Shown: piece after piece, positions 1,062-63,317 of the stretch
How positions within the stretch are numbered: position 1 is the first letter of the stretch
Layout of the letters: the number at the start of each line of letters is the position of its first letter
Source: a virus
Lineage: Duplodnaviria > Caudoviricetes
Reading direction: 5' to 3' (one strand)
Length of the DNA stretch: 64,000 nucleotides
Virus record (IMG/VR): IMGVR_UViG_3300021408_000001
Location: 32,001 to 96,000 of that record
Translations under genes and position numbers: made by a program
Notes under the pieces: model-generated
Databases searched by the model: none
Told to the model about the DNA's origin: nothing
Seen by the model: the letters and a program-made list of their open reading frames with translations, nothing else

Positions 1062-1065
1062 CGCA

Positions 1066-2446: not shown

Positions 2447-2459
2447 TAAAGAACTCCAA

Positions 2460-3826: not shown

Positions 3827-3831
3827 CTAGC

Positions 3832-5311: not shown

Positions 5312-5412
5312 GAGGCTACCTCCTTGCTCAAACTATGTCAACTATATTGGAAACTTTTATGTTTAAGCGATCTACACGCTCTACAAAACCAAAACGGTTT
5401 TATAAACGTTAA

Positions 5413-40199: not shown

Positions 40200-41150
40200 T
40201 GACAAACAACAACCCACTAAGCCAGCACGGAATGCGAGCGATGGATGGCCTGTGCGCACGAAGACTGTTCGCGGACGCAAACAAGTGAGATAATGCGGAT
40301 TATTAAGCCAGTAGGGTTGCCAGGTACTAACGCGGTCTGTAAGTTGGTGGGTGCCCGAGCAGTACGAATCGGGCGCAGGCATGGCACTGGATCGGGTTAG
40401 TCGCTTTCCAGCTCCCAGCCGAAATCGGGCAAACAGCCTGCTAGCGGTGCGAACCGCGGGGCGGGCGAACGACCAGGGTGCGACCTGGTCAGTAAGCGGT
40501 TTAGCCCTAGCGCTAAGGCGATATCCCAACCGGATTACCGGTAATGCGGTTTCCAAGCGAGCACGTGATGGTGAGAGACGTGCGGTTGCGAATCCCCTAA
40601 CTTAGCAGCGCTTAAAGCTGAAACTCTCTATGGGAGTCCTACAAAGGTCCTGGTCACGGTACGTACCGTAGCTAAGCTAAGCGAACGGTCCAATGGGGTT
40701 AGGTATTAGTGCTAACCCGGGCGGAACAAGTAGTAAGGCGATGGGTAAATACAGTCAAACCAGAATCCGGGCACAGGGTAGGTCAATTAGAGAGTGTTGC
40801 TTAAACCCTTTCTTTCCCTAAAGGTGAGAATAACGGGGGATGGCATCGCCTAGGGGGTCACTTAGAAACCCGAACGGTGCCATCCCCTGCTCACTAACGA
40901 TTTGAATACGCACAAGGGGTAGCTAGTTGTACTCATTGAAACCGCTTATGCCTAATCGTGCATAGGTATGGAACGTGGGCACTAGCTACCCCCTGTGTTT
41001 ATTCAAGTCTAAGAGGCGGGTAGCACGTGAACGGTCACCTTAATAAGTGAAAGCTTGTGACCGAACACCTTAAAGTGCACAAACCCACTCTTGCTAGGCG
41101 TTAGCACTTACCGGTGAATAACAACCTGGTGGGTAGCTAGCGCCTAGCGG
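40200..41150 (+). ncRNA. Candidate long structured non-coding RNA / leader
   Basis: No credible ORF; many hairpins, several with GCGA-type loops (GACCAGG-GTGCGA-CCTGGTC, GCGGT-GCGA-ACCGC, GGGGATGGCATCG...CGGTGCCATCCCC). Confidence 0.4.
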
Positions 41151-41399
41151 CTATCGCAAAGCACAGGGGGAGACATGAATACACCAAACGAAAGCGCTTA
41201 TGACTTCTACTACGCACAAGCGATGATGGAAGGCGTGAATGCCAAAGAGGCAAGCGAGTACGCAATTCAGCGCGCCAGCAACCCAGGGCGTGACTTCTAC
41301 AGCCATATGTTGGCGCAGGCTCGTTAGTGATACTGAGACGTTAGGACTTAGGCCCTAACGTTGATTGTAATACTAACAATGGGAAAGGGAGCTAGTTAA

Positions 41400-41738
41400 A
41401 TGAATAAGTTCGGAATCAAGGTCATCGTGGGTCTGTTCATCTTCGTGATCGGTTACGGTGCTAACGCACTGGATACCGCGAACGCGACGAACACCCCTGT
41501 GAGCAAGAGCGTCAACCTGGTGGCCAATACCGATAACCCTGACGTAGTGGTTACGTGGGGTACTGGTAACGAGGACGAGGATAATCTAGTGATTACGGTT
41601 GACGGCGCGGAAGTGCTTCGCACCCACGTTGACCAGCTCGCTAGTGGTAAGCGTCTGGTCGTGGTTGATGCCGATTGGTTCAACGGTTACGTGACCTGGT
41701 ATGACGCCAACGGTGCAGAGTTCACCAAGAGCCGATAG
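41400..41738 (+). CDS. Secreted/membrane-anchored protein
   Basis: Signal peptide-like N-terminus; preceded by the cassette element and RBS. Confidence 0.65.
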   Translation: MNKFGIKVIVGLFIFVIGYGANALDTANATNTPVSKSVNLVANTDNPDVVVTWGTGNEDEDNLVITVDGAEVLRTHVDQLASGKRLVVVDADWFNGYVTWYDANGAEFTKSR

Positions 41739-41851
41739 CGGTTGCGGTTAGCCAACTACGGTTGGCTAACCAATTATCCTTATCGGATATGGGATTCTAG
41801 AGAGTTACTTTCGTAACTCTCTGGGTTGACCAATGGGAAAGGGAAGAAACA

Positions 41852-42124
41852 ATGCGCAAGGGTGGGGATTCCCGCGGTTCGTCCGCTAGCCGCCGTGCTC
41901 GCAAAGTTTGGATGTTAAATCACTTTGGCAATGGGCTTAACGTCAATTGCGTTCATTGTGGTAAGGAACTTGATTACACCACAGTGGAGAGTGATCGAAT
42001 CATTCCGGGTAACTTGGGTGGTTCTTATAGGCGAGACAATGTGCAACCCGCGTGCCGATGCTGCAACGCACGGCGCGCCGATGACATGAGCTGGACTTAC
42101 ACTCCAGTTATGGCAATGGCTTAG
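41852..42124 (+). CDS. HNH endonuclease-like protein
   Basis: CVHCG...DRIIPG..GGSY.RDNVQPAC..CN. Confidence 0.8.
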   Translation: MRKGGDSRGSSASRRARKVWMLNHFGNGLNVNCVHCGKELDYTTVESDRIIPGNLGGSYRRDNVQPACRCCNARRADDMSWTYTPVMAMA

Positions 42125-42457
42125 CACTTACTGAGTCGGGGTAATGCAAATTACCCCGACAATTGTAAATACTAAGTTAGGGAGAGGGATTATGGCTATC
42201 AAGCATACGCAACGTGGCATGGGTGGTGGTAAGACTCATGGTGTTGTTAGTGAAGCGCACCAAGTGTTGCATCATCGCAAGCGTGAGACGACCGAGCGCA
42301 TCATTTGGGCTAAGCGCGTCCTTTACCGTCACAAGGTGATTGGTTGGGACGACTTGACCCCAATCGAGCAAATGGGACTGACCAAGCACTAGTGATACTG
42401 AGAGCTAACGACATCGTCGTTAGTTCAATTGCATTACTAGAGATAGGGGAAAGGGAT

Positions 42458-42766
42458 ATGAGTGAGTATCGCACAGACGGTGCGGGCGCGGAAGCGCTTG
42501 CATTGCAACTAGACGCGGACGAACGTTTGCAACCTGGTGATGCCGGTTACTGGCAGCATTGGGGAGCACGTACGTTTGACGTCAAGGCTGGTGACATCAT
42601 CGCTACTCTTGATAATGGCGTCATCGTTCTAGACGAAATCGCTAGTGCTCGTGACAACACTGTTCAAATGGTCTACACCACGGTTAGTGGTAAGACGTTC
42701 TCGCTTGGACATTTGTTCAAAGGATTTCAAGTGTTCCGTTCGGGAACGCATAACACGCTCGCCTAG
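42458..42766 (+). CDS. Hypothetical protein (start corrected to the ATG after GGGAAAGGG)
   Basis: RBS position. Confidence 0.6.
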   Translation: MSEYRTDGAGAEALALQLDADERLQPGDAGYWQHWGARTFDVKAGDIIATLDNGVIVLDEIASARDNTVQMVYTTVSGKTFSLGHLFKGFQVFRSGTHNTLA

Positions 42767-43252
42767 TGGTACTGACCTAGTACTAGCAATAGTGCTAGGG
42801 ATTGCATTACTAGACAATGGGAAAGGGAAGACAACATGCGCACCTACACCACTACCGATTCCAGTGGTAACAAGGTCCGAGTCATGGCCGATTCGCAGGC
42901 TGCCGCGGCCGGTTGGGCAGAAGTTGAGCGCAAGCTTGCCGCGATGCGTGCCATCGCCTACAACCTGCGCGTTTGGTTCTAGTCGTTACTGACCTGGCAC
43001 TAGCAATAGTGCCAGGGATTGTAATTACTAGTAAATGGGAAAGGGATTATGACTACTTTCAATTTCAACCATGTTCCGACCGGTCAGAGTGGCAAGGTCA
43101 TGGCGCGTAACCACGTCGCCGCGGTCAAGATGGTCCGTGAGGCTTACGGACCTGGTGACGTTGAGATTCACGCGGTCTAGTCGCTACTGAGAGGTTAGGA
43201 CTTAGGTCCTAACCTCAATTGTAGTTACTGGTTAAGGGGAAAGGGATAGACA

Positions 43253-43642
43253 ATGCTGGACATTATGGGCAACGAATACGAGCAACTCCCGATGTTCATC
43301 AATCCCACTACCATCATCGATAAGACGATTGATGGTAGGTGGGATAGTATAGACCATGTCACAAGTGAAGATGCTTGGAATGGAAAGCTTCAGAATTCAC
43401 TGCGTGGTGGACATACCGGCTCGGACTTCAATAATATCACTAAGTGGCAAGCGTTCGGACCAATCACGCTGACAGTTCATCACGACAACGTGATTATGGG
43501 TAATGGTCATCACCGAGTCGCCATGAGCGCAAATCAGGGAATGCAATTGATTCCTTGCTTGTGGAGTCATACTTCCTTCGCGGAAGACGAGTACAAATCA
43601 AAGGAACGGGTACTAGGTTCCGAGGAAAGTGAGTATTACTAG
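43253..43642 (+). CDS. ParB/Srx-like N-terminal domain protein, paralogue of 54207-54557
   Basis: QLPMF N-terminus, PI.L, GNGHHR motif, IP..W. Confidence 0.6.
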   Translation: MLDIMGNEYEQLPMFINPTTIIDKTIDGRWDSIDHVTSEDAWNGKLQNSLRGGHTGSDFNNITKWQAFGPITLTVHHDNVIMGNGHHRVAMSANQGMQLIPCLWSHTSFAEDEYKSKERVLGSEESEYY

Positions 43643-43711
43643 CAACGGTTGACCACTGATTAGCAGTAGTCAGTGGGATTGCAGTTACTAGAACAGGGAA
43701 AGGGATAGCCA

Positions 43712-44023
43712 ATGGCAAAGCTAACCGCTAATGGCAAGCACAAGGTTGCTAGCGTGAGCTATACGACCAAGCCGCGGACGGAAATGCCCAATGGTGGCAG
43801 TGAGGAGCACTACACAACGTTTGCGCTTAGGAGCGATGGTGCAGTGCTGGAAGCGCATACGAGCGTCTATCGTCATAAGAGCGATGGTGGCAAGTACCCG
43901 CATCGTATGGGTGGCAATTACACCATCGTTGGCACCTTGCGTACTGGCCTACCGATCACGGAAGAGACCTTGCGCAACTTGCGAGTAGTCAAGGCCTACT
44001 CAAACAAGTACAACGAACGCTAG
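43712..44023 (+). CDS. Hypothetical protein
   Basis: Cassette element plus RBS. Confidence 0.6.
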   Translation: MAKLTANGKHKVASVSYTTKPRTEMPNGGSEEHYTTFALRSDGAVLEAHTSVYRHKSDGGKYPHRMGGNYTIVGTLRTGLPITEETLRNLRVVKAYSNKYNER

Positions 44024-44640
44024 TAGTACTGAGAGAGCACAAGCTAGCTTGTGCTCTTGATTGCATTACTAGAACAGGGAAAGGGATAGCTAATGGGATG
44101 GTATACACTCATTAGGGTCGTTCAACGCACCGTTTGGAACTATGTTCTCTTCGATAGCGACAATCTCGTTGTCGCTAGTGCTTTGCGAGCGTCGTGGTTA
44201 GCAGTATGATCGCGCACAGTGTGTTTGAAATCATAGGCGGCGGCGTCTTGGGTGTTACAACCCTAGCGTTCTTTGTATGGGTCGCATGGTTTCTTTGGTT
44301 AGCTAGTTAACTCTGAGAGTGCACTAGGTTTCCCTAGTGTGCTCGATTGAGCTAATTAGAAGGGAAAGGGATTATGGTAACACGTCGCAAGGATGGCACT
44401 GAGGTTAAGTCTGGTGACATCGTTGATGATTTCCGAGGCGCGCCCTGGGAATTCAAGCGTGCTGTTAGAGCACAAACTACCGCTAAGTCTGGCAAGGTGC
44501 TGGTTAGCGATGGGGCATGGGTGCAAGAGTTCTACGATTTAGTCTTTGACCTTACGGTCACGGATAGTTGATTCTGAGAGTGCTTAGCGAAAGCTGAGTG
44601 CTCGATTGAATTAACTGTTAAAGGGAAAGGGAAGGCGGCA

Positions 44641-45456
44641 ATGAGGAAGAAATTTGATTACAAATTTGAGTTTCGCCATTGTCCTCTTTGCCTTAGCGAT
44701 GACATAGAAGTTGTGTTTGGGCATGATTGCCCATATGACCCTAGTAAGCTTGATAACGGAGCTATGTTCCCTGGTGTCAATATTGATGCTAAGGAGCGTG
44801 GTAACGGTAGTGGCAAGGGGTCGGGCGGTAATAGCCCACCTAAGGCATCTCCTAAGCAAATCGCATATGCGATAGCGCTAGGGCTACCAGAACACATTGC
44901 TAACGCAATGACTGCCGCGAGTGCTAGGGATCATATTCCTAGGCTCTTGGAAGAGCGTAAGCGCAAGGGTGTTGATGCTCCTGTGAGTGGCGCTAGCCCT
45001 AAGCAGATTGACTTTATCACTAGTCTGCTTAGAGATAGGCCCGGGGCATGGGATGGTGACGTTAATACACTGTCTAGCAGTGATGCTAGTGCGCTTATCA
45101 AGCGCTTGCTCGCTACACCTAAGAGTCAAGCGCCTAAGGTGGCAACGGAAATCGTTACTGACGGTTTCTATGTGGATGACAGTGATGTCATTTACAAGGT
45201 GCAACGCGCTGTGCATGGTAGCGGGAATCTTTATGCTAAGGTTCTCGATACCGACACTGGCGTGTTTGAATATGCACAAGGTGCTATTCGCACGCTTGGT
45301 ACGATGGTGTCTAAGGGTACTGCTCACAAGCTCACGCTTGAAAGAGCTAAGGCTCTTGGTCACCTTTACGGGCGTTGCATCATTTGCGGTAAGACGCTTA
45401 CAGACGAAACGTCAATCGCTAACGGCATTGGGCCGGTGTGTGCAAAGCGTTTCTAG
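44641..45456 (+). CDS. Protein with ASPKQI repeats and C-terminal DUF6011-like Zn finger
   Basis: Two ASPKQI motifs; C-terminal CIICGKTLTDETSIANGIGPVC. Confidence 0.7.
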   Translation: MRKKFDYKFEFRHCPLCLSDDIEVVFGHDCPYDPSKLDNGAMFPGVNIDAKERGNGSGKGSGGNSPPKASPKQIAYAIALGLPEHIANAMTAASARDHIPRLLEERKRKGVDAPVSGASPKQIDFITSLLRDRPGAWDGDVNTLSSSDASALIKRLLATPKSQAPKVATEIVTDGFYVDDSDVIYKVQRAVHGSGNLYAKVLDTDTGVFEYAQGAIRTLGTMVSKGTAHKLTLERAKALGHLYGRCIICGKTLTDETSIANGIGPVCAKRF

Positions 45457-45525
45457 TTGATACTGCGGGGTAGCTAGTGATAGTTGCCCCAATTGAATTA
45501 ACTAGTAAGGGAAAGGGAAGAGCAA

Positions 45526-48500
45526 ATGGCATTCAAGCGCCATATTTGGCCTATGCGTGCTAACGAAGTGCGTGAGGATGACTACCTAATCCTTTGGTTG
45601 GATTACGCTTCAACGATGGTCATGCGTGTTGATGTTATCATTAGTCGTCGGCCGGGTGATTACAAGTTCAGTGGTGATATTCGTTGGAATTATCACGATG
45701 GTTCTAGTCGAGTGTTAAATGGTTGGTCGCCCTGGTATGAGCACACCCAGTGGATACAAGTTGCTCGTTATCAGTAGCTACTGAGGATAGACGATAAGTC
45801 GTCTATCCAATTGTAGTTATTGGATTAGGGAAAGGGAAGAGCAAATGGCTAAGGTCAATTCTAGGCTAAAGCCTAAGACTATCAAGGGTAGAGTGTTTAC
45901 GTCATTGGTGACGTTCTCTGATGACAACGAACACGTTGCACTTGAGGCTTACGACGATAACGGTCGTCGTCATTTCGTCAAGTTCACGCCAACTGAACTA
46001 GTCAAGCTACACGGTGTGCTAGAGACCGTTGCGCAACGCGGCTGGTTCAAGGAAATGTTGTCAAAGGAAACCAGCGATTCGGTTTAGTGGTTCTGACCTA
46101 GCACTATAGATAGTGCTAGGAATTGAATTACTAAATAGGGAAAGGGAAGAGCAATGGGTTTCTTTGAGGGTAAGTTCAAGATCACGCATCATAAGCGTGA
46201 TCGGGAAGTAAGCGTACGTATGGATTTGCGCACGCTGGAAGACCTTTATCACCAGCTCGTTCATGCTGAGATCAATTGGGAGCAGCAAGTACTCACCAAT
46301 GGTGAGTACGTCAACGAATCCCGAGAGATTCTTGCTGAGGTTAAGAACTACCGCAAGGAGCTACGTGAGGCTTATGCCAAAGCTACTGGCCGCGAGGTTT
46401 AGTTAGCAACGGTTGACCTAGTGCTAGCGATAGCACTAGGGATTGTCGTTACTAATCAATGGGAAAGGGATTAATGATGACTCAGTACCGTTGCCCGAAT
46501 TGTGGGCACACTGAAAGTCAGTTCTTCGCCAACATCGAAGTTTGGCATGCATGCCCTAAGACAATGGGTCATGCTGCTGTGAGGCTTAAGGTCGTTAGCC
46601 CTGTCAAAGAGGCTAACCGAGTGCGTGACCTGTTGAAGTTGTAGTTGCTGAGAGCACAGGAGATCGCTCTCCTGTGCTCAATTGCAATATCAACATGGGA
46701 GTCTAGGGACGTTACGAAAGTAACTCTCTAGGTTGACCCTAAATGGGAAAGGGAATAACAATGGATTGCTTCGATTATCCGCTTAGTGATGATGAAATCG
46801 ACCGCGATGCATGGGATACCGACAACTACGATGGTGACGCTTTCTATGAGCGTCGTCCGTCCCAGCGTGGTAGTACTATCGACGCTGTTCTCGCTTCCTA
46901 GTCGCTACTGAGGGCTAAGGACTACGGTCCTTAGTCCAATTGTAGTTACTAAGGTGAAGGGTAGAATGATGCTCACTAAGGAAAGCGGTTGCAAGCATTG
47001 TGGTAAGCAAATTGCCCGCAATGCTGATGGTGTATGGGTGACTATTATTATTCAAGACGCCGAGTGCGTATGGAATTTCGCGGATTTGGTACATGTGCCA
47101 GCCTATGGCAATTGGAGCTAGCAACGATTGAGGGTAGCCAATAACTATATTGGCTACCCGATTGTCGTTACTAAATAGGGAAAGGGATTGCAATGGAAAT
47201 CTTTAGTCTTGTGCTCGTTGAGGTTTCTCGTCCGCGTGGTGGTAGCAAGTGGGCGCGGTTCCTGCGCTCGTTGGTGCGCTAGTCATGGATGATAACAAGC
47301 TTTGGGTTGACGCCTACCAGATTGCTTACATTGGTGGGAGCAATAAGCGAGCAATCGCTAATGCACTCATCAATTACACCAAGCAATTAGGTAGCAAGCA
47401 TGTCGCGGTTCGTGCTATCGCTGGTCACCTACTGTACCTTTACGGGTACGATTTGGGTCCGGAGATCACGGACCTTAACAAGGTGCTTGCTAAGGCTGTT
47501 GAACTTGGTATTGCCTAGTGCAAGCTGAGAGCACAGGGGAGTGATCCCCTGTGCTCGATTGTTAGTACTAGACAGGGGAAGGGAAGAGCAATGGCAAGAA
47601 TCACAAACAAAGAAGTGATGCGCGAGCGTTATAACAACGCTTGGTATTACGCTCTTGGTCGACTGACGGAACGCGGATTCGGTAATAGCGGTAGCGTTGA
47701 TGATTTCGTTGACTATCTTCGTGCTCTTGACGATTACGAAGTTATGAGCAAGTCTCTTGCTCAACACTTTGAGAATTGGAGTCATTGATGGCGGCTATTG
47801 ACGTACTGCGCGAGCGACTGGAAGAACAACGAAATTGGACGTCGGTAGTGTTTCCCTCTGGTGATTACGTCTACGAAGAGGGTAAGGCAGAAGGCATGCG
47901 CATTGCACTTAAGTTGATGGAAGAGGCTGAGAATGCGGTTTGAAGATCCTAGTTGGGCTGAAATACAGCGTGTCAGAGAGCGTGAGGCTGCTTATAGGGA
48001 TAAGGCACTTCCTGTTGTAAGCAAGCTCGATACGACGCTTAGTAACTACCGCAAGGGTACGCTTACCTTTGGCGAGTTGCTCCTTAGCGTCAATAACTCT
48101 CTACACCAGCTAGATCAAATCTAGTCGTTACTGACCTAGCACTAGAGATAGTGCTAGGGACTGTAATTACTGGTAAGGGAAAGGGAGAAAGCAATGGCAC
48201 ATAGAAAGACAATCCATGTCGCTCGCGTCAGGGAGTTGGGCAATACGTACTTGAGATTGTCCAGTACTGGCGATAAGGAAGGCCGCTACGGAGTTGTTGG
48301 TTTACTTGAGCAAGTGCTCATGGAGACTGACAACTACCACGGATTTAATTATCTGGATTCGGAATTTGTCGCTGATCCCAGCGAAGTTGATCCGAATGCA
48401 AGGTCGCTCCGCGACGACTACGACGATAGCCGTAGGAAGTACTACTAATGCCTACTGACGAATTTGGCGAGCCTCTGGAATGCCTTAACGGTCCGGAGGA

Positions 48501-48939
48501 TTGCGTAGGCCCTGTGGACTATCGGCTAGCTCCTGGTGGTAAGGCGTGGCCACGTTGTGAGTACCACGCTAATAAGCGCTGGGACGACTACGACGATGAG
48601 AATAGCGTTGAGCGCTATGCGGATAGCGACGCTGTTCCCGAGTGGTTTGATCCGTCCTACGCTGGTGAAAGTTGGGATGATTAGTCGTTACTGAGAGCGT
48701 AGGGCTTAGGTCCTACGCTTGATTGTAGTTACTAAATGGGAAAGGGAAGAGCAATGCTTGTGCCGGATGATAATATCATGGCTGACGATCACACATTCAG
48801 TACCGTTGCTATGTGGTATAACGAATCTGTTGATGTGTTGCAGCGAGTTGGTAATAGTTACCTTATTCGTAGGCCTTCTGGTATCACTATCACAGTGAGC
48901 CAGCGTGAACTTAGTGGTATTCGTCACACTTCACGTTAA
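45526..48939 (+). CDS. Run of small hypothetical early-type genes (45526-45777, 45845-46087, 46154-46402, 46459-46644, 47249-47518, 47591-47788, 47933-48124, 48194-48448, 48448-48684, 48736-48939 plus <60-aa ORFs)
   Basis: Most start just after GGGAAAGGG and end at a TAG that opens the next hairpin element. Confidence 0.6.
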
Positions 48940-49057
48940 CAAGTAGCTGAGAGCACAGGACGTTAGATTTACTAACCACTGAGATACTGTTTGGTGGTAG
49001 ACAATGTCCTGTGCTCAATTGCTAGTTGTTAGTGCAAATTGGGAAAGGGAGAAGCAA

Positions 49058-49504
49058 ATGAATGTGTTCAAGCTGATTAATGCAATCAACGATGTCGTTG
49101 CATTCAAGCCTGGGTACAAGCTGAGTGCCATTGATTGGAGTCGTCGTCACGCTGGGTCAATTCTTGTGCGAGTTACGTACAGGACCTTTGACTACAGCGC
49201 GGCATACGCTCCCAACTACGGTAACTTTACCGAGTTGGAAATTTCGTGGTACTTCTGCATTGTTCCCGAGCACTACGACAACGAGCGTGGTTTCTGGCGA
49301 GGGTTCTTCGATAATCTCATGAGACTAGAGACTCATGAGAACCGTGAGGCTTTCCGTATCTTCAATCCTGATACGGATAAGTGGGAGGGGCCATTTAACC
49401 CCCATGAGCCGAGTGGGCAGAAGAGCTTTGGCAGCATCGCTGAGGATATCCAGTTCGGCGATCTTGTCATCAACCCGGAAGACGTTGAGGTTCTGTTCGA
49501 CTAG
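49058..49504 (+). CDS. Hypothetical protein (HExRE motif)
   Basis: Start set by RBS; ETHENREAF...PF.PH. Confidence 0.6.
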   Translation: MNVFKLINAINDVVAFKPGYKLSAIDWSRRHAGSILVRVTYRTFDYSAAYAPNYGNFTELEISWYFCIVPEHYDNERGFWRGFFDNLMRLETHENREAFRIFNPDTDKWEGPFNPHEPSGQKSFGSIAEDIQFGDLVINPEDVEVLFD

Positions 49505-49575
49505 TGCTAGCTGAGAGTAGCCAACAGTGTTGGCTACTCGATTGTTAGTATTGGTACGGGGAAAGGGAGAAAGCA

Positions 49576-50028
49576 ATGAGACAAGATTTCCAAGTGCTAG
49601 GTAATTTGTATATCCCCAATGTCGATATCAGTCTTAGGTACCCCTTGTTTGAGGGGCCGCATTGGGGTCATCGTGTTCCTAGACAAGTGTTGAGTATCGC
49701 TAATCGTGGTCCTAGCAGTGCTGCGAATCATTGGCATCACGATCAACCATTAGATATTGGTTTGATCCTGTGGTCAAACATGTTTCCAACAGAAATTAGG
49801 TTGTCGGATGGCAGAATTGTTACTGCTAAGCCATTTGATGTGGTGTTGCTGGACAATGCCAACGTTCACCATAGGACGCCAGAGTATGTCGTTAAGTTGG
49901 CGCAAAGAGGCGCTAGCATTAATCGTTATCTCATTCGTGGGATCTACGATGGCTATCCGTCCGATGATGTTATCAGTGAGTGGAAGAATCAACTAGCACG
50001 TAAGAAGACGCTTGTCAGTGCAAGCTGA
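49576..50028 (+). CDS. Putative 2OG-Fe(II) oxygenase-like protein
   Basis: WHHD (HxD) and DNANVHHRTP (distal His) pattern. Confidence 0.45.
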   Translation: MRQDFQVLGNLYIPNVDISLRYPLFEGPHWGHRVPRQVLSIANRGPSSAANHWHHDQPLDIGLILWSNMFPTEIRLSDGRIVTAKPFDVVLLDNANVHHRTPEYVVKLAQRGASINRYLIRGIYDGYPSDDVISEWKNQLARKKTLVSAS

Positions 50029-50090
50029 GGGTAAGCGGGCGGTTGCTCGCTTATCCAATTGTTAGTACTGAAAGGGAAAGGGAGAAAGCA

Positions 50091-53000: not shown

Positions 53001-54203
53001 AATTACTAAAAAAGGGAAAGGGATTATGCACGAGTGGTTTGAGAACCTTGTCATGCTCGTTAAGCCTCACATTGAGGATATCGCCGGTGACTTGAGCAAT
53101 ACTACCGATTTCATGTTTGGCTATTTCGTCGGTACCGACACTGCCACGCTTGTCATTGATGCTCCTGATATTGATGGCGAGTATAAGTATTCGTTTACTT
53201 ATACCACGTACGGTTAGTAGCTGCTGAGGATACACAGGTTCTCCTGTGTATCCAATTGCAATTACTAAATAGGGAAAGGGAGAAAGCAAATGGACGGTAT
53301 TTACGTTAACATTGATGGCAAGGGGTGGGTTCGCCCTAAGTCCAAGAAAGAGATCAAGGAAATCGTTAGTACCAACCCGGAAGGTGTGAAGGTTGAATAC
53401 ACTTCACTCTTCAACATCGCTGAGGTTGAGGATAACGTAGCAGAGCTGCGTGTTGGGGCTAAGATCAACTTTGTTGGTCCTGACCCTTACACGCGTCGCA
53501 ACTTCTACGGAACCATTACCGTTAGCGAAGATGCTGATGGTAACAAGCGAATCGTGGTTAAGTGATGAGTTATCAAGAAGGATCAGCTTATTGGCACAAA
53601 GAGCAGGCTGAGAAGCAACTTGCTATTGCTGAGGATATCCTCACGAAAGACAAAGGCTTTAATCAGCATCACTCTGATAGGGCAAGCGCTCATGCGGCTA
53701 TCGCTGATGCCCATGCGCGCATCTTTGCTGCCATGCTACCTACTCTTTAAGTAGTTGGCGAAGTACGTAGCTGAGTCCGGTGATCACGTGATACCTGGTA
53801 GTTACGATAGAGTTAGTGGATTCGTTCGCTACCGACTATCTAGTGAGCACAGGGCGGACGTGACCTATAGCGTTTATCGAATTGACTCACAAGAAAGATT
53901 CGTAGGCCATTGGGTTAATGGTGGCTGGATCTAGTGCTAGCTGAGGATACACAGGTCCTCCTGTGTATCCGACTGTTAGTATTGATCAATAGGGAAAGGG
54001 AAGGCACTATGAGCAAGTACGAGGTTGCTCAATTTGATGGTGGGTGGTGGGTGTTGAGGGAAGAGCGTAGGGATAGCGATAATAGGTATATCCAATCGTC
54101 TGATACCTATTATGTTCCCCACGCTACTACCGGAGGTGACGAAGATACAGCGTTTGAAATCGCTAATACGCTTAACACTTCTTATTACAACCTAGAGACT
54201 TGA
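50091..54203 (+). CDS. Run of small hypothetical genes in cassettes (e.g. 51217-51426, 51426-51689, 51904-52248, 52320-52505, 52765-52959, 53026-53217, 53290-53565, 53562-53750, 54009-54203)
   Basis: Cassette element plus RBS; starts corrected to the RBS where the track ORF begins inside the hairpin. Confidence 0.55.
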
Positions 54204-54206
54204 TTA

Positions 54207-54557
54207 GTGGAGATGTATACGCAGCTGCCTATGTTCATGTCTGGCAAAGAGATATGGGATAACATCTTTGCTGGTAGTTGGGTAACTGCTGACCATTACG
54301 GACAGTATCCACCAGAGGAAGTCTATGACATGAAGCTAAGAGCTACTCGGCATCTGCGATCTAGTGTTGCAGAACACGGTGTCAAAAGACCAATTGTTCT
54401 CATGTCCGATTATATCGAAGGCTTTGTCACTATAGGCAATGGTCACCACCGCAGTGTTCTAGCTAATGAGCTGGACCTAATCGTTCCGGTCGTATGGACT
54501 ACTGATGATGTCCATGCTGTCGATTATCTAGGTCACGATGATTCTTGGACATGGTAG
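54207..54557 (+). CDS. ParB/Srx-like N-terminal domain protein
   Basis: QLPMF, SV...GVKRPIVL, GNGHHR, VPVVW. Confidence 0.6.
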   Translation: MEMYTQLPMFMSGKEIWDNIFAGSWVTADHYGQYPPEEVYDMKLRATRHLRSSVAEHGVKRPIVLMSDYIEGFVTIGNGHHRSVLANELDLIVPVVWTTDDVHAVDYLGHDDSWTW

Positions 54558-54625
54558 CTACTGAGACTAGACATCATTGATGTCTAGTCAATTGTAGTTA
54601 TTTGACTAGGGAAAGGGAATAGCAA

Positions 54626-57600
54626 ATGGCATTCACACAGGAGCACTTTGAGTTTGTGGCGGCCCTGATTCGTGATAGCGAGGAGCACTTCAAATCAAAC
54701 AAGGCACATGCCGAGTTTGCTAAGAAGGCAGCGCGGCGACTTGGTAGTACCAACCCACGCTTTGATTTCAAGCGCTTTATCAGTGCCTCTATGCCTCGAT
54801 GGCTAGTTGGCGCTCGTGGTGAAATTGCTTGGAACAAGGTTAGTCGTGAGCTGATTGAGGAGAACAAGGAAGGCGTTTGAAGATGGCAACTACTAGAATG
54901 AGTGGTGCGGCTGAACGTGGCCGGGCGATTGTTGATATGGCCAACGGCTATGACGACATCGTCTCTATGCTTGCTGACATTGACGCCTTTCTTCTAGCTG
55001 ATGGGAGACAACCAATTGATGTAGTGAGCACGTATGCTCGCACTATGTCATTGGAACGCATGCGCTTAGATGAAGTGTGGGATAGACGACATAGCTAATG
55101 CAAGCTGAGGGTAGGCGAGAAATCGCCTATCCAATTGTTTGTGTTGGACAAGGGAAAGGAATAAAGTTGCAAATCAAGGGGTTGAGTACCCAAGAGCGCG
55201 TTGCCAACGGTATTGCTCTGTTCAATGAGCACGTACCGGACTGGCGCGAACGCATTGACACCAACATGCTTGACGTTGGTGACCTGCTGTCGTGCCCTGT
55301 TACACAAGTGATTGGCGGTTTCACGGCTGGACTCAAGAGGTTGGGTCTAGAGATGGACCGTAGTGGCATCTACGTGGATGCTTACAAGTATGGATTCGAT
55401 GTTCCTGTAGATAGTGGGGACTATGGTGATGAATACGAGGATCTTACTAACGAGTGGTATTTCCAATTGACCGGTAAGGTTCGTTCCTAGTCGTTACTGA
55501 GGATAGGCGAGAAATTGCCTATCCAATTGTAGTTACTAGATAGGGGAAGGGAAAGCAATATGGAAGATAGAATCTGGGCATACGCTGAATCACCTTATCA
55601 ACATTGGTTCGATGGTTTATGTGATGGAATGCTTGACGCTCCTGAGGGTATTCGACGCGTCCCTCATCACAAAATGATTATTGATGATAATTTGGAGGCT
55701 GTTCATCTGTTTTCAGACGGCTATACAATTGGGTTTAACCTGGTGACAAACCTTCTAGATCAGGGTATCATCAATGATGATGGCGCAATCACTGAATACG
55801 AATAGCACCTACCGGGTGACACTAGCCTTAGTTAGTGTCATTCCGCATGGCTGCTAATTGGTAGCAGTTATGGGAAAGGGATAAAATCAACATGTGTGGT
55901 TCCTATGAGGACGATAACACTGACGTCAACGACTACGACGATGAGGTCTACGAGACTGACGTTGTCGCGGCCGATGAGTCCGAGTGGTTGACGCGCGTGC
56001 GTGATGCGCAGCGCGACGACCGAGAGGCTGCTGAGCTGGAAGTGGTTAAGGCCGAGGGTGGCAATGAGATTGACGCCATCCTTGCGGCTCTTGCTGATCG
56101 GCATCCGGCCTTCGCTCGGTAATCGTTAGCACACACTGAGGGCACCTATCATTGATAGGTGCTCAAATGTTTGTACTAACGACAGGGAGAGGTAATGGCG
56201 TACGATTACGGTGATGACGAGCGCGAGATGTGGGTTAGTAACGATCTAAGTCTTTATCTTGCCTGGCAGAATTCTGGCATTCCAATTGAGGATTATGTTA
56301 GAGATAATCGAACCCAGCTCGATGAGTACATCGATCGGCATATTCGATGAGTAGTATTGATACGCTTTATGTAGTTCGTGCCGATATGAATGACGGTTCC
56401 GTAAAGACGTTTGGGACATTCACAGAACTAGAGGCTTACCAATTCGCTGATAGCCTAGATGATCTAGGTCTTCCAGCCTTAGCGGTGCCTCTTACTCATG
56501 TGCCTAAGTGGTGGAAGTATGTTGAGTGAATTTCTTCACTGACGATTTAAGCGGTTTGCCGTACAAGCTGAGAGATACTGTTAGTCTCAATGGATTAGCT
56601 GGTACCGTAGATGGTATAGGAATTCGCCACATTGAATTCCGGGGTACATACCATCCCTACTTAGTGCTACTAATTCGCTGGAAGGACGGTACGCGCTCTG
56701 AGTTGGGCGGCAACGAACTATACCAATTGTTGGAAGAGGATGATTAGTACTAGCTGAGGGTGCACAGAACTTCTGTGCATCCGATTGCTGTTACTAAAAG
56801 CAGGGAAAGGGAATATGGACAAAGATGTGTTCGCGCAAGCCATTGGCTTTGCTGATATCCTTGATGCCTCGCAGGCTCTTATCGATGTGATTGAGACGCC
56901 GCATGCTACGCAAAGAGATATCATCAACTTCAAGGATAAGTTGAAGCGAGCTATTGCTGATAACGGGTTTGGTCCTCAGGGATGAAAGACCAAATCAAAC
57001 TCGATAGAATGGTGCTTTCATCTAGCACGCTGCCAGGTTATCGTGCAGTTTGGGAGCCTGCCGAAAGCGAGTTGACGATTGAGCATGGTGATGATGACTT
57101 ATGGGAGCCAGTTGAGGTTGTACAAGTAGAGCGCTTAGGTTCTAAGTACACCATTATGATTGCCCAATCAAGGCTACAGAAGATCTACGATAGTTTCTAG
57201 TACTAGCTGAGGATACACAGGTCCCCCTGTGTATCCGATTGTTAGTGTTAGCCAAATGGGAAAGGGAGAAAGCAAATGAATACGTTTACTGTTGACCGTA
57301 AGGTTCGTACTGGTCATGGATCTAGTGAGAGCGAGCACGTGGACTACACTGTGCTCGCTCTCACCGGCCCTGAGGCTGCCAGGGTGGCCGACCACGCGAA
57401 GGCCACTGAGGAGGCTCGTAGGGGCCTTGTGAAGGCCCCTGACGACGTGCCCAGTAGGCTCACGCAGCGTATCCCCCGGGTGACGCTCTACAGGGGCAAG
57501 CTTAAGATTGCTAGCAATTACTAATGCGACTTGAGGTTGCAACCTTTACGTACTGGTCGCATGCTAACTTGCCTAGTAGGTATTACGTCGTTAGGCGTGA

Positions 57601-60600
57601 TGCTGAGGGCAAGGAACCGCGAGGGTACGTCTACATCTATGCAAACAAGTCAGATGTCAAGACGTTTCGCAAGCCGCTAGAAATTCGTGAATTTCTTAGT
57701 GCTGCTGACGCTATGACGTTTGCACTTGTGGATAACGGTTGGGGTGAGGTAGTTTCTAGTTAGCACTGAGAGTGCACAGGGTTCCTGTGCACTCGATTGA
57801 GCTAATTGGATAAGGGAAGGGGACATATGCGAACAGATAACGGCAACGTCATCATGACCAGCAAGGAATATGATGACGAGTATCTAGGCAACCTGGTTAA
57901 GGGCTATGCTCGCGGCCGTCTAGATGCTGATAATGTTGAGGCTCATAAGGCAATGTTGATTATAGGATTTCATGAATTCTTTATGAAGCGGCGATACGAC
58001 TACCCACGAAACAGTGATTGGGCCACTGCGTGGGATCATTACGTCATGAGTCTAGAGTTGCTAAGGGCTATGAAATACCGCTAGTGTAATCTGAGAACAT
58101 TCATCGTTGATGAATGTTCGATTGTTTGCACTGGGCAAACGTGTAATAGGGAAAGGGAAAAAGTAAATGAATAGTGTTAGCCCGGAGGAACTGACGGCCA
58201 ATACCTTTGCTGCTGTTAAGGCGCAGTGGCCTGGTATTACGGAGAAAAGTCTTCGTATTAGTCCTTTCGAGGATAATACTCTCCTCCTGCTGATCGGCAG
58301 TCCGTATTCTCTCTACTCGTTCACTACGCAGGATCGGATTGATAGTGCCGAGTTGAGTGGTGCTATTCCTGAGCAGTTGGGGGTTATCATCAACGATAGT
58401 ACTGGTGAGATTGAAGTCTTCGCTGACTTTGACGCTTTCCAGGAGCGCTTTGAAGCTATTGTTCGGGGCGCGACTATCACCAACACTGACAATGGGATTA
58501 TGTCCGTCTAGTACAAGCTGAGGGCACACAGGAATAACCCTGTGTGTCCAATTGCTCGTAATTGGACGATCACAGGGAAAGGAATGATGCACGAAGATAA
58601 TGATTACACCTGGGCGGATAATTCAACCCAGTATGAGGAAGCTGAATTCTCGCAAGCAACCGCGTATGTCCATGATTTGGCTATATCGTTTGCTGATGAG
58701 CATGTCGGATCATCGGACGATCTAGGTCGATATCACCTTGTTTATCTTGATTTGCGTCAAATTGACAAGGTAGTAGAGCTTGGTTGGAAGAGGGACGCAG
58801 ACGCGGCCCCTGAGTCAAAGCCTACTGCTGTTATCGTTGTGGAGCATCCACAAGGTAACGTTACTGCGGCTTTCTATGACTCAGAAGAACCAATCCAATT
58901 GGATTGGGACGAGATCCTAGACATGTATGAGGGTTACGACGTAAAGAATTCACCCGGGGAGATCCACTAATGGACGCAAATCCATTTAGTATTGGTCAAA
59001 TCATCGCATACGAGCAAGGTGAGCTAGACGACGAAGCAACTATAGAACTGTTTCAAGGTCTAGTCGATAGTGGCATGGCTTGGCAGTTGCAGGGGCACTA
59101 CGGCCGAACGGCTACGGCTCTGATTGATGCGGGACTAGTAAATGGATGACGCATCACTTATGCGATCCTACAAGGCAGAGATTGATATGTATAGGAACTC
59201 GGTCGTTCAGATACTAAATCTAACTCATGGTCGTAAGCGGATTGATGCTGACGAAGTGCGTAGGCTCGCAGAGCAAGCGCATGAGGAAAGTAACCGGTTA
59301 TCACGACTCCGAAGGCAAGGTTAGTACCTATTGAGGACACTCAGGCTAACTGAGTGTCCGATTGTAGCTATTAAACAAAGGGAAAGGGAATATAAGTGAG
59401 TATGTTTCCAGGTCCGGGCGCTCGCGTTGATTACAACGAGGCGGGTGAGCCTATCGGTTGGGACTATCCATCGGAAGATGACGATATCTATCCGGGATAT
59501 GATGTTGCATACGATCGTGACGACGATGATGACGACATCTGGGAGACTAGATGGGCGCGTCAGGAGCTAGAGCGTCAGCGAGAAGAGGGCAATTAGCACT
59601 TGCTGAGAGTACCTATCAATGATAGGTACTCAATTGTTAGTACTAATACAAAGGGAAAGGGTTAAGATAATGGCACGCAAGGTATTTAAGGCAGCTTACG
59701 TACTTCCTATGGCCGCCGGCCACAGCTACGGCGAGCTTTACACAGATATTGCTATTGATAAGGCTCTCTTGGGGTATCAAAGGGAGCATGGCCACATTGA
59801 TTACGACAGTCTTGTCGTGACATTGCGGTTCACTCCTACTGATATTCTCGTTGATGTTGATAGCGAGGAGGAGAAAGTTGGCGCGTAATGGATTCCCCCT
59901 ACCCAATGACTACCTTCTCTTAGAGCGTAATGTTGGCAATGAGATGGTTCTTAGTGGTCTAGTGGTTGCCTCTGTGCACTACGATGATAACAATGATTCC
60001 GCTACGATTCTAGTACTTAACCCTATCTCACCGTACTTTACGGTGATGAATGTTAAGTACCGGTATTCTCATGATAAGGATTCTGCATTTGAAATCGTTC
60101 AGGTTTTCCATGCGGAGAATCATCTAAACATCGTCACTGCGGTGGAGAGTTATCAGGAGTGGGGAGGCGATATCTAGTGGCCAGGATTTGGATTGGTAAG
60201 GCGTTTCTTGGCGATAAGCAAATCACTGAGACAACCTTTACCGAGGATGAAGATAGCCAACGGTGGTTGGAACACTTCATAAGTGATGCTCGCAATAACC
60301 ATCATCCCGCATTTAGTTATGTGGTTGCTGAGTATGAACTTCTCAATACTGAGACGATCGTTCCAGCGCACCCCATGACTCTTAAAGAATTGGGGCTTTA
60401 GTGGCAGTGATTCGTCAGACGCGAGTCTACGATCTTAGGCAGGGCGATGAGTTCTCCTTTGACGCTGATATCTACAAGTCAACTCGTTATACGATTGACG
60501 AGATCACACCTGACCATCGCTCTAGACCATTCAATCACCTCGTAACGAAGATTGTTACTACTAGAAAGAATGTGGCGCAGGTTCGGCTAGACTTTGATGT

Positions 60601-61588
60601 CTGGGAAATTTCTGACAATCAAACTCTAGTCTGGGTCATAGGCTAGTACATACTGAGGATGCTTAGCTAAGCTAAGCATCCAATTGTCTGTATTAGAAAG
60701 GGAAAGGAATATGGCTACAGGAAACGTTCAAGTGGTAATCAAGGTCGTTCGTACTCCCGAATTTAAGCTATGGATGCAACGATTGCGCTTTGATGCTGCA
60801 ATTGATGCCATTCTCCGTAAGAGGTCATAGATGTGTTAGGTCCCATCGTTGGATGGTCGATCATTATCGCATGTGTCTCATTGATCTTGTGGATCATCAT
60901 CCAGAATGTTAGTGACCATAGGCATCATAAGCAGATAGGTAAGTGGCTCAACGATAGAGCTGCTGAGGAGAAGAAAAAGCGTGGATAAGTTCTATGTTGG
61001 CAAGAATCTAACGGAAGCTAGAATGCGTGTGCCATTTGATTCCAATCAAGCGGCTCATGCTTATGCTTCGCAACTTGGGTTGAATGTGTATACCCATGGT
61101 GAAGCGTTTCCGCATGATGACTCTGATAGTTATGAGAATCGTCATGATCCCGGACCTAGCATGATCGAAGTGGAGCATGTAGCACTAGCTATTGCTGAGG
61201 CACCACATGCGTTTGCTGGTACTGAGGGTATCAAGCTCTTTGTTGATAACCTCATCCATGTGCTGAGTCAAGATGGCGCTTTGCGTGATCGTGATCGAAT
61301 GCACGATGAACTGATGCACTACATGATTAGGCAGTAGTAATTGAGAATGCACAGTAGGCCTGTGCATTCAATTGTTATTACTGATTGAAGGGAAAGGGAA
61401 GCATGACACTTAAGCATAAGTCGGTTAAAAAGACGTTCAATAAACCAGGGGCGAACTTTGGCCAAGTCAAAGAGTTTCTTAATTCTATTGATGACGCTCC
61501 TGATGATGCGTACGTAAGTATCCAAAGCTATTACTGGTCTAGTACACGCATCAAGTGGGTTGAAGTTTCTTGGGATGTAGATGAATGA
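54626..61588 (+). CDS. Run of about 25 small hypothetical early-type genes in cassettes
   Basis: Plus-strand ORFs with GGGAAAGGG RBS or translational coupling; several are very acidic (55892-56122, 59396-59596). Confidence 0.55.
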
Positions 61589-62013
61589 ATCTCGGTGATG
61601 CTGCCATTTTGGCTAGAGACCTAATGAATTACCATGGACTCATTGATTGGAATCTTGATTTCGATCGAGCTAAGAGGCGTTTCGGGCAAGCTAAATTCGA
61701 TACCAAGACCATTAGTCTCAGTGTACCACTTGTTATTAGGAACAATGAGATTGATGTTGGCGAAACTATTAGGCATGAGATTGCTCATGCTTTAGTTGGT
61801 CATAGTCATGGTCACGATGACGTGTGGCGTGACAAGGCTCTTAGCATTGGGTCTAATGGTAAGGTTACTTACGACGGGAATAAGATAGAAACTCCTGTAG
61901 GTAAGTGGATTGGTGTCTGCGAACTTGGCCATAGAACTAGGCCTAGGCACCGGCGAGGTAATCTAGTGTGTAAGAAGGACCTAACGTCAATCAGGTGGGT
62001 TGAGAACAAATGA
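61585..62013 (+). CDS. SprT-like zinc metalloprotease domain protein
   Basis: AKRRFG, I.LS, TIRHEIAHAL...HGHD..W...A..IG. Confidence 0.8.
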   Translation: MNLGDAAILARDLMNYHGLIDWNLDFDRAKRRFGQAKFDTKTISLSVPLVIRNNEIDVGETIRHEIAHALVGHSHGHDDVWRDKALSIGSNGKVTYDGNKIETPVGKWIGVCELGHRTRPRHRRGNLVCKKDLTSIRWVENK

Positions 62014-62246
62014 AGACATATGTCATTAACTATATTCTAGAAAGTGTGCCTGAGCGAGTGGTTGAGGCTGAGTTTATGGAATATAGTAGGGATGGGTTCA
62101 CGTTCTTTAATAATGGAGTGGAGCCTGGTCCTTTCTTGTTTATTCATAAGTCGGCTATCAAATCGCTAGAGCGCGAGTAGTACTAGCTGAGGGTACACAG
62201 GACTCCTGTATACCCAATTGTTAATACTGCCGGGAAGGGGAATAGC

Positions 62247-62486
62247 ATGACCAAAGCACAAGACGAACGTCACTATGACAAATTCCAACGAACCATGGCT
62301 AGGTTCTATGCCTATGGTCGTATGGATGAGGCTATGATGGGAGATAGCCTAGACGGTATCAATGTCGTTGATAGGTTTGTAGAATTCTTCCTAAATAGCA
62401 CGACACCATCAGTAAGACTTGCGTGGATTATGTATCACGCGACACTAGTTGAACTACAGGAAGCTGGATACACGTCTCATACGTAG
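62247..62486 (+). CDS. Hypothetical protein (YA.GR.D family, cf. 47591 and 57806)
   Basis: FYAYGRMD vs YYALGRLT vs GYARGRLD. Confidence 0.5.
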   Translation: MTKAQDERHYDKFQRTMARFYAYGRMDEAMMGDSLDGINVVDRFVEFFLNSTTPSVRLAWIMYHATLVELQEAGYTSHT

Positions 62487-62778
62487 TGATAGCTAAGAGC
62501 TAGCAATCTTGAGATTGCTAGCTCGACTGTTAGCACTGCACGATGTCAGGGCTAGCCGGGCAGGTTGGAATCCAGCCTGACCACGATAGAATCCAGTACA
62601 GCCAGTACAACCCGGGAATAACAGACCATAGGTTGTGGTTGTACGGGTTAGGCGCTACACTAGTTGGTGCCTGAGAGGGTACGGAATTCAACCCCGCACT
62701 CTCAACTGGCGCAAGCTAGCGTCAAGAGAAGTAATACCAACCAACAACGAAACCCAAAAGGGAAGGGAATAACACAAA

Positions 62779-63051
62779 ATGGCAAACACGACTGAGAAGA
62801 CGAGTAAGGCCAACGAGGCTAAGGACGCCGAGGCGACCGAGGTTGAGGCCAGCGAGACGAACGACAGCGCCGATCTGGTGCCCGTTCTTTTCAAGGTCAC
62901 CCCGGCCCAGCGTGCGTCGCTGAAGCTGGTCGCCGCGGCTGAGGACAGCACCCTTCAGGGCCTGTTCGCCCGGCTGACCGAGGCTGTCATCGCTGAGAAC
63001 AAGGTGTGGCTGGACGTGGTCAACGCCCGCCGCACGCAGGCTGCCGCCTAA
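62779..63051 (+). CDS. Putative ribbon-helix-helix DNA-binding protein with host-like high-GC codons
   Basis: VPVLFKVTPAQRASLKLVAAAEDSTLQGLF; strong G/C third positions. Confidence 0.5.
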   Translation: MANTTEKTSKANEAKDAEATEVEASETNDSADLVPVLFKVTPAQRASLKLVAAAEDSTLQGLFARLTEAVIAENKVWLDVVNARRTQAAA

Positions 63052-63317
63052 CCAAAGGGTGTAGCTACTGCGGGGATAGGGACTTAGGTCCCTATCCCCA
63101 ATTGTAGTTAAAGCTAGGATGCTAAGAGACTCAAGCTTATTAGAAGTCTTTGAGAGCATTTCTTACAGTCTGGGTCCCTAATACGGATGTCAGGCCATCC
63201 TTGTAACTACATAATATAAGGGTATATTTATAGGTAGCTAGAGTGAGCAAGCCTATATAAATTAGGAGGGGATTAGCTTAGCTAATCCCCTCCTATTCGC
63301 ATACAGAAAAGGGAAAG

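Follow-up and report, generated by a model that had tools for sequence, protein, structure and literature searches.

Bacteriophage T7 carries five RNase III signals in its early region (R0.3, R0.5, R1, R1.1 and R1.3; 10 sites in all), roughly one for every one to two early genes. They are intercistronic hairpins of a long early transcript, each with a stop codon ahead of it and a ribosome-binding site after it, and consist of two helices of about 10 bp separated by an asymmetric internal loop; the copies share loop sequence, and some have GNRA apical loops. In SP82 and SPO1, conserved hairpins in the early RNA are likewise combined with a strong, purine-rich, stabilising ribosome-binding site downstream. 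Cutting of SP82 early RNA by B. subtilis RNase III is reported in PMC4838370; according to PMC7509114, which cites Hue 1995 and Sala 2008, SP82 mRNA and processed mycobacterial katG mRNA gain stability from ribosome-binding sites or polypurine sequences. Here we describe an array of hairpins of similar anatomy and density in an uncultivated phage. The DNA analysed, hereafter the window, is a stretch of 64,000 nucleotides comprising positions 32,001–96,000 of the 132,904-bp virus record IMGVR_UViG_3300021408_000001 (Caudoviricetes). At least 53 copies of one structured RNA element were found in this genome, most of them in the window, as against the five early sites of T7.

Among actinobacteriophages, the nearest described analogue is the SAS/ESAS system of Cluster K mycobacteriophages. 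SAS is a repeat of one orientation that includes a ribosome-binding site and lies 3–7 bp before the starts of non-structural genes; an inverted repeat, its arms separated by a variable spacer, stands ahead of about half of the copies, and in some cases the motif includes the stop codon of the gene before it (PMC3203893). Departures within the 17-bp inverted repeats of ESAS generally do not support RNA pairing, and the authors favour DNA-binding sites (PMC3203893). The element described here differs in that its pairing covaries strongly, with 94.4% of alignment cells paired, and in its copy number, which is 11–19 per genome in Cluster K. The 13-bp SAS consensus GGGATAGGAGCCC had no match with up to two mismatches, and the purine motif here is instead GGGAAAGGG.

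The PeSL of T4-like phages are short, repeated regulatory modules with a stem-loop, found on either side of small, dispensable genes in variable regions, where they can bring about gene shuffling (PMC2839356, PMC4122927). They consist of a strong sigma-70-type early promoter and a terminator stem-loop (PMC2839356), whereas the present elements have an internal loop and neither a promoter nor a U-tract. Sigma-70-type promoter-like sites in the array numbered 25, with 24 expected, none was tied to an element, and the conserved blocks covary as a helix; PeSL membership was therefore rejected. The elements also resemble REP/BIME and integron attC sites, which are likewise hairpins of conserved structure and variable sequence that follow genes or cassettes at their 3′ ends, all in a single orientation. 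They differ from these in being fused to translation signals and in a G-U bias that indicates RNA, not single-stranded DNA. An attC array was rejected because no IntI-type tyrosine recombinase (PF00589) was found in the 132.9-kb record, while control genomes were all positive.

Structure of the element and its fusion to translation signals

A covariance model, R1, was built from 30 copies picked by eye and with a loose regular expression, and aligned with MAFFT. It gave 47 plus-strand matches between window positions 41323 and 63110 (32.9–70.4 bits, E = 8e-6 to 7e-16) and six further copies just outside the window, at genome positions 96438–105231, making 53 in total. No match was found in the remaining ~100 kb of the genome (1–73 kb and 105–133 kb). 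R1 overlooked two or more further copies whose apical ends carry large insertions, so that there are about 55 altogether. A previous inspection of the letters (the sequence-only reading) had given an estimate of about 50 copies in the early region. An element at genome 99423–99612, past the window, was one that R1 missed; it has normal basal arms and loop, and a 129-nt multi-helix apical insertion. All copies were on the gene strand and lay between nearly all the small genes of the array. Their median spacing was 359 nt, and the array is therefore divided into units of one to three small genes, consistent with the gene cassettes proposed earlier.

Reverse complements of the element sites scored no higher than 22.8 bits, whereas the forward strand reached 70.4, and in ~1.8 Mb of unrelated viral, metagenome and distant-relative loci nothing matched at E ≤ 0.1. 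Rfam 15 offered no known family: only tRNAs reached the gathering score over the whole window, and window positions 41300–54000 gave no match at E ≤ 1. The elements are a new structured RNA family, absent from Rfam.

Both helices were recovered by RNAalifold from a sequence-only MAFFT alignment with no prior structure, with compensatory changes in 16 of 18 pairs. In the 53-copy alignment, the fraction of paired cells fell to 26–48% when the 3′ partner was slid by 1–3 columns, and 20 of 21 pairs showed changes on both sides. The apical helix is variable in sequence, but 99.6% of its cells were paired and all 10 of its pairs covary. None of 500 shuffles reached the observed covariation score. 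Each of the 53 copies, folded singly, takes the same shape.

The dimensions of the two stems were close to those described before, with a basal helix of 9–11 bp in 46/53 copies and an apical helix of 10–12 bp in 50/53. Between them is a 3 × 4 internal loop (UGA / RAUU). This loop had been called nearly invariant; it is strongly conserved, with UGA on the 5′ side in 45/53 copies and RAUUG on the 3′ side in 45/53, but not invariant, and where it varies a change of G to A on the 5′ side tends to accompany one of U to C on the 3′ side. The apical loop has 3–4 nt in 46 copies (30 tetraloops and 16 triloops) and is varied in sequence. The emphasis once placed on GNRA and UNCG apical loops was overstated, since these occur in 13/53 copies only. 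Apical insertions of 30 nt and 129 nt are tolerated, with the basal helix, the loop and at least the first 10 bp of the apical helix kept. Recognition is therefore independent of the apical loop.

The strand on which selection acts was evident from the non-Watson-Crick cells. G-U and U-G cells numbered 119, against 20 for A-C and C-A cells, and the GC skew of the plus strand (about +0.15, G-rich) explains only a modest share of this six-fold excess. In addition, the plus-strand RNA was more stable than its reverse complement in 47/53 copies (mean −27.5 versus −21.8 kcal/mol, Wilcoxon p = 1e-8). The G-U excess and the strand asymmetry therefore show selection on plus-strand RNA and not on duplex DNA, as had been proposed.

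A resemblance of the internal loop to box C/D-type pairing, also suggested before, did not survive closer comparison. The 5′ side has CUGA, as in a D box, and GA faces (G/A)A. A tandem G-A/A-G pair, however, is possible only in the 24/53 copies with G at the first 3′-side position, and box C (RUGAUGA) occurs in 0/53 elements. Judged from the sequence, the GA of the 3′ strand, which requires R to be G, lies directly against the apical helix without the 3-nt bulge of a K-turn. The flanking helices also differ from those of a K-turn, both being long, regular Watson-Crick stems. Box C/D and K-turn identities are accordingly not supported.

The element fills the intercistronic junction of two units, from the stop codon of the first to the ribosome-binding site of the second. 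The open reading frame (ORF) before it ends within the 5′ arm of the basal helix, and the stop codon of this ORF, as noticed at the outset, is mostly UAG: 43/53 element-linked stops are of this kind, versus 18/116 for long ORFs elsewhere in the genome. Thirty-six of the 53 elements carry a stop in all three frames. Downstream, the previously noted motif and start codon were found to be a regular part of the junction. GGGAAAGGG has 36 exact occurrences in the window, all on the plus strand, with 0.29 expected by chance, and is nearly restricted to the array. With up to one mismatch it follows 46/53 copies, in 43 of these 46 at 0–5 nt past the helix, and the start codon lies 3–11 nt beyond it, in many cases with AGAAAGCAA or AAGAGCAA in between. 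The GAAAGG core of the motif could pair with CCUUUC, the tail of the 16S rRNA 3′ end in many Gram-positives.

Two observations concern the UAG codons. The next in-frame stop after the element-linked one is UAG again in 26/53 cases, and an amber-suppressor-type tRNA with a CUA anticodon was predicted by ARAGORN on the plus strand at genome 1201–1275, outside the window. If this tRNA were active later in infection, ribosomes would be driven into the hairpins of the early cassettes.

Occurrence in related phages

Relatives with the element were found through a DUF3987 protein that is encoded between two elements and has homologues of 50–59% identity on short metagenome contigs. Two related phage contigs, L230 (from JGI sample 3300062131) and L231 (from run SRR31245171), were scanned with R1; the closest DUF3987 relative (59%), three others and 80 loci of bacterial genomes were left out of the scan. 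L230 (DUF3987 58% identical) gave four matches (E = 7e-10 to 3e-5) and L231 (54% identical) gave one (E = 3e-10). All were on the gene strand and all began at stop codons. By eye and by folding, 6/6 intergenic spacers of more than 20 nt in L230 contained a hairpin with a GGGAAAGG-type motif after it; a smaller loop, UC / CUG, occurs in two of these hairpins.

A second copy in L231, with a 30-nt apical expansion, follows the orthologue of an ORF at genome 96038–96445 in the genome holding the window (G000), and in G000 that ORF also precedes an element. At this orthologous junction, the two phages have preserved the basal helix and the 5′ side of the loop, and the apical helix is wholly different yet still paired. 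The presence of the element in relatives, and at an orthologous junction, indicates that the family is older than any single genome and is maintained by selection.

More distant searches were negative. R1 found no element in DUF3987 relatives of 48% identity or less, IMG/VR loci included, nor was one found in relatives identified via the portal protein (45–49% identity) or a DUF6011 protein. A pattern scan of IMG/VR (3′ arm plus ribosome-binding-site motif) was discarded: it returned 76 contigs with one match each, all of them chance hits in which R1 found no element. The matches listed in a metagenome pattern scan were likewise single chance matches, none R1-positive, and give no measure of spread.

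tRNA genes were seen in comparable positions. At L231 4885–5022, a short hairpin and a tRNA gene (4923–4996) stand directly before the purine-rich ribosome-binding site of a homologue of window ORF 49576–50028; this tRNA gene occupies the place held by the hairpin element in G000. At 107–127 kb of the latter, 15 tRNA genes are interleaved with ORFs, and several have the ATG of a real ORF 1–5 nt downstream, such as tRNA-Phe (end 120511, ORF 120514–120918) and tRNA-Val (end 125621, ORF 125626–126123). To judge from the sequence, the tRNA-then-ATG layout looks like tRNA punctuation giving leaderless mRNAs.

Proposed processing by RNase III and other explanations

The best reading of these data, to which we attach moderate confidence, is that host RNase III cuts the RNA at the elements and that the mRNA is thereby stabilised. 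Host RNA polymerase would produce a long polycistronic transcript over the small, presumably early genes, in which each module extends from the stop codon that closes one unit to a point immediately ahead of the purine-rich ribosome-binding site that opens the following one. The double-strand-specific RNase III of the host would bind about 22 bp of helix and nick at the conserved internal loop. The upstream message would retain a 3′ hairpin that blocks 3′ exonucleases, and the downstream message would begin ~10–15 nt ahead of a very strong ribosome-binding site, a possible 5′ stabiliser. Each unit of one to three genes would become an independent mRNA, insulated in stability and translation. 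What the data show is the fold, the RNA strand on which it is kept, its constant place at the gene junctions and its occurrence in relatives, whereas we infer transcription as one unit, cleavage, the identity of the enzyme and the stabilising effect; the single transcript is suggested only by the lack of promoters. No phage RNA polymerase was found among the larger ORFs scanned with Pfam, and this, with the absence of a sigma-70 excess, fits one long transcript made by the host. A tRNA, itself an RNA-processing signal, in the place of the hairpin in L231 and the tRNA-ATG junctions would also fit a processing-based design.

For comparison, the five T7 early RNase III sites were folded from the T7 genome at the site positions of Dunn and Studier. 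In the fold of R1.1, an asymmetric internal loop, which holds the mapped cut, UAU^GAUUG, on its 3′ side, separates a basal helix of 9 bp from an apical helix of 10 bp that is closed by a GCAA loop. R0.3 and R0.5 share the loop and stem sequence of R1.1. The elements are built alike, with an internal loop dividing about two helical turns of duplex RNA (9–11 bp, 3 × 4, 10–12 bp). In both, GAUUG reaches from the 3′ side of the loop into the basal helix, perhaps by chance. Clear differences were also seen. Copies in T7 share stem sequence, whereas the stems here differ and covary, and the present elements contain the stop codon in their basal helix and have a fixed polypurine ribosome-binding site after it. 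SP82 early RNA reportedly has three cut sites, far fewer than here.

Several points weigh against this reading. R1 applied to T7 positions 800–7000 gave at best 9.3 bits (E = 1.3), with no sequence homology; the likeness to T7 signals put forward in the sequence-only reading is therefore architectural only. Cleavage is proposed from anatomy, and a single transcript across the array is an assumption. Identity to isolated phages does not exceed 32% for the portal and the DNA polymerase (Arthrobacter and Bacillus phages), and so these proteins do not point to a host or to the preferences of its RNase III. No RNase III gene was found in the phage genome itself. Finally, RNase III needs little sequence specificity, so that strong conservation of the loop could mean a sequence-specific protein.

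Such a dedicated protein, other than RNase III, would bind or cut the element by reading the internal loop and basal helix, and could switch all cassette mRNAs together, for example in early-gene shut-off. We consider it unlikely, though less so than the other alternatives. Conservation of UGA / RAUUG, retained in the relatives, exceeds what a plain double-stranded substrate requires, and the paired changes across the loop hint at a structured loop. The protein might be a phage endoribonuclease or translational repressor among the ~100 genome proteins of unknown function, or a TasA-like protein, and the majority of array proteins have no family assignment. However, no candidate could be pinpointed, no known RNA-binding or Cas6-like family was present among the proteins scanned, and T7 RNase III sites share loop sequences too, so that loop conservation alone does not exclude RNase III. 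A wider version would have a dedicated phage system (an endoribonuclease or RNA-binding protein, possibly the TasA-like Nop/IS110-type protein whose gene is 12 kb away) read a genome-wide punctuation code, cut and time ~55 cassette mRNAs and use the joints for cassette exchange between phages; this appears rather doubtful, and the link of TasA to the elements is speculative. Alternatively, the hairpins could be left uncut and act passively between cistrons, as a barrier to 3′-to-5′ exonucleases like REP, combined with translational coupling in which a terminating ribosome melts the basal helix and hands over to, or frees, the next start site. The stability of the hairpins, the three-frame stops, and a stop codon that opens the basal helix with a ribosome-binding site a few nt past its end would all suit this role. 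Any stable hairpin would serve the purpose, however, and neither a conserved loop nor fixed helix lengths would be needed, which leaves a purely passive insulator with little probability.

The remaining explanations place the primary role of the element in DNA or in transcription. As a recombination joint or mobile cassette boundary in the manner of PeSL, integron attC or REP, with any RNA role secondary, it would account for an array that is laid out like cassettes, its small genes being unrelated and few of them paralogues, and its conserved flanks could provide microhomology. Recombination joints, which the sequence-only reading had offered as a further possibility, are weakly hinted at by L231, where a homologue of an element-flanked cassette stands at a different relative position and one synteny breakpoint coincides with an element. 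Yet the G-U bias and strand asymmetry indicate RNA, no tyrosine recombinase is encoded, variation in the stems shortens the homology common to copies, and retention of the element at an orthologous junction with compensatory change argues for purifying selection, not selfish spread; a mainly DNA-level role is improbable. Atypical intrinsic terminators or attenuators, without a proper U-tract and lowering transcription stepwise, are more improbable still. A permissive scan flagged 20 apical hairpins followed by RAUUGUWRUU as terminator-like, and U-less terminators have been claimed for an actinophage early region, in a paper that PMC3993855 cites. What follows the full hairpin is purine-rich, though, and not a U-tract of 7–9 nt, in line with the lack of a U-tract noted before; what follows the apical helix is RAUUG and the basal arm, with at least five U in 8 nt in ~20 copies only. 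The conserved 5′ loop side and covarying basal helix would have no role in termination, and 53 such sites in series without promoters would silence the distal genes. Purified mycobacterial RNA polymerase needs a U-tract, and the authors named nuclease contamination as one possible reason why termination without a U-tract had been reported before (PMC3993855). It is very improbable that the elements serve a transcription factor of host or phage as promoters or operators. The ~14-nt conserved blocks on either side of the apical helix might suggest a bipartite site, but their spacing varies with helix length, they covary as a helix and tolerate a 129-nt insertion between them, which speaks strongly against a promoter; nor would a G-U bias have meaning for a site in duplex DNA. 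Overall, the observations of the sequence-only reading were confirmed and its interpretation was partly supported.

Genomic surroundings and significance of the array

The copies of the element in the window are listed below.

Table. Hairpin elements and associated motifs, in window coordinates
Feature	Position	Strand	Basis
Hairpin-plus-Shine-Dalgarno array, 47 modules between small ORFs	41323..63110	+	R1; 6 more up to genome 105231
36 exact GGGAAAGGG purine-rich Shine-Dalgarno motifs	41381..61398	+	motif count
Element copy	41323..41377	+	R1 41.4 bits
Element copy, divergent; second hairpin type after	41731..41787	+	R1 33.9 bits
Element copy	42120..42176	+	R1 52.1 bits
Element copy	42388..42441	+	R1 56.5 bits
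Element copy	42762..42814	+	R1 45.5 bits
Element copy	42978..43032	+	R1 60.1 bits
Element copy	43176..43232	+	R1 65.0 bits
Element copy	43638..43692	+	R1 36.3 bits
Element copy	44019..44073	+	R1 52.7 bits
Element copy	44302..44360	+	R1 54.4 bits
Element copy	44563..44619	+	R1 54.4 bits
Element copy	45452..45506	+	R1 52.8 bits
Element copy	45770..45824	+	R1 63.0 bits
Element copy	46083..46135	+	R1 48.5 bits
Element copy	46402..46456	+	R1 37.5 bits
Element copy; second hairpin type after	46637..46695	+	R1 41.7 bits
Element copy	46897..46953	+	R1 59.8 bits
Element copy	47117..47175	+	R1 44.3 bits
Element copy	47514..47572	+	R1 61.7 bits
Element copy	48120..48174	+	R1 50.6 bits
Element copy	48680..48736	+	R1 62.7 bits
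Degenerate or expanded copy; GGGAAAGGG at 49041	48945..49040	+	weak R1 17.3 bits; fold
Element copy	49500..49555	+	R1 62.0 bits
Element copy	50014..50072	+	R1 53.1 bits
Element copy	50404..50460	+	R1 62.0 bits
Element copy	50644..50699	+	R1 52.8 bits
Element copy	51137..51194	+	R1 39.9 bits
Element copy	51823..51878	+	R1 47.7 bits
Element copy	52244..52300	+	R1 65.2 bits
Element copy, best match	52955..53010	+	R1 70.4 bits
Element copy	53213..53269	+	R1 69.6 bits
Element copy	53930..53986	+	R1 50.0 bits
Element copy	54550..54605	+	R1 57.9 bits
Element copy	55094..55148	+	R1 52.1 bits
Element copy	55486..55540	+	R1 63.4 bits
Element copy	56125..56180	+	R1 43.1 bits
Element copy	56743..56798	+	R1 61.0 bits
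Element copy	57196..57252	+	R1 56.2 bits
Element copy	57755..57810	+	R1 62.2 bits
Element copy	58080..58135	+	R1 55.8 bits
Element copy	58507..58565	+	R1 55.2 bits
Element copy	59320..59375	+	R1 48.8 bits
Element copy	59592..59647	+	R1 60.7 bits
Element copy	60642..60697	+	R1 64.0 bits
Element copy	61330..61385	+	R1 49.2 bits
Element copy	62176..62231	+	R1 59.4 bits
Element copy, loop variant CUAAG / GACUG, without Shine-Dalgarno motif after	62482..62540	+	R1 32.9 bits
Element copy, basal helix truncated, without Shine-Dalgarno motif after, precedes likely operon boundary	63062..63110	+	R1 34.7 bits; fold of 63105–63320

To the left of the array, structural genes for portal and terminase are on the minus strand. 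From 41.2 kb of the window on, every gene is on the plus strand, and these genes are mostly small and without family assignment. The same plus-strand block runs on through the tRNA-rich region into replication genes for a family A DNA polymerase, a primase-helicase and a PD-(D/E)XK nuclease. Paralogy between cassettes is nearly nil, with one pair and, just past the array, one triplet; there is therefore no sign of recent duplication between elements. Beginning at window 63318–64000 and extending to genome 96445 are three tandem paralogues of 124–135 aa (37–51% identical). L231 encodes two tandem members of this protein family, for which a set of 5.8 billion proteins yielded hardly any further homologue.

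ORF-free stretches occur at the head of the array (window 40557–41175, ~620 nt) and near its end (62541–62778, ~240 nt). Neither contained an Rfam family at gathering score, and they may hold the array promoter or structured RNAs. Window positions 63110–63310 are AT-rich and then form a 15-bp GC-rich hairpin (63262–63296, fold z-score −3.2); this is probably an operon boundary, past which elements are sparse. A second, unrelated type of hairpin (GAGAGTTAC, a tetraloop and GTAACTCTCT), followed by TTGACC, was spotted by eye at window ~41797–41830 and ~46703–46735, in both places after a normal element. On the minus strand, a 261-aa ORF at window 28928–29713 resembles PDB 9mty_A, an IS110-family C-terminal-domain protein (E = 3.9e-11); it had no Pfam match even at E = 10, and nothing was found that links it to the hairpins.

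The completeness of the record was estimated by CheckV at 94%. A 155,744-bp contig with proteins of this phage is present in the protein database, compared with 132,904 bp for the IMG/VR record, and ~23 kb may thus be missing from the record examined. Among Logan contigs, run SRR7011997 yielded one contig of 1,380 bp that is identical to the record along its full length. When 8 kb of the array were compared by megablast with 50,697 phage records, nothing matched.

By its anatomy, the element has the known architecture of phage RNase III signals; its density and its fusion to translation signals are what is unusual here. If the elements are processing sites, this phage would employ the T7 strategy of cutting early polycistronic RNA at a scale about ten times larger. 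The presence of tRNA genes directly abutting start codons in the same genome suggests that the phage may rely broadly on RNA processing to define its messages. The junction of stop codon, hairpin and ribosome-binding site would then free each small gene from its neighbours, and would explain how many unrelated accessory genes can be kept or swapped without retuning their expression. The ~55 copies would represent natural, sequence-diverse insulator parts for operon design. Were a dedicated phage system to prove responsible, it would be a natural RNA-level analogue of synthetic intercistronic insulators and of integron cassette arrays. Whatever its function, the element is a new RNA family of unusually strong covariation, present in at least three uncultivated phages.

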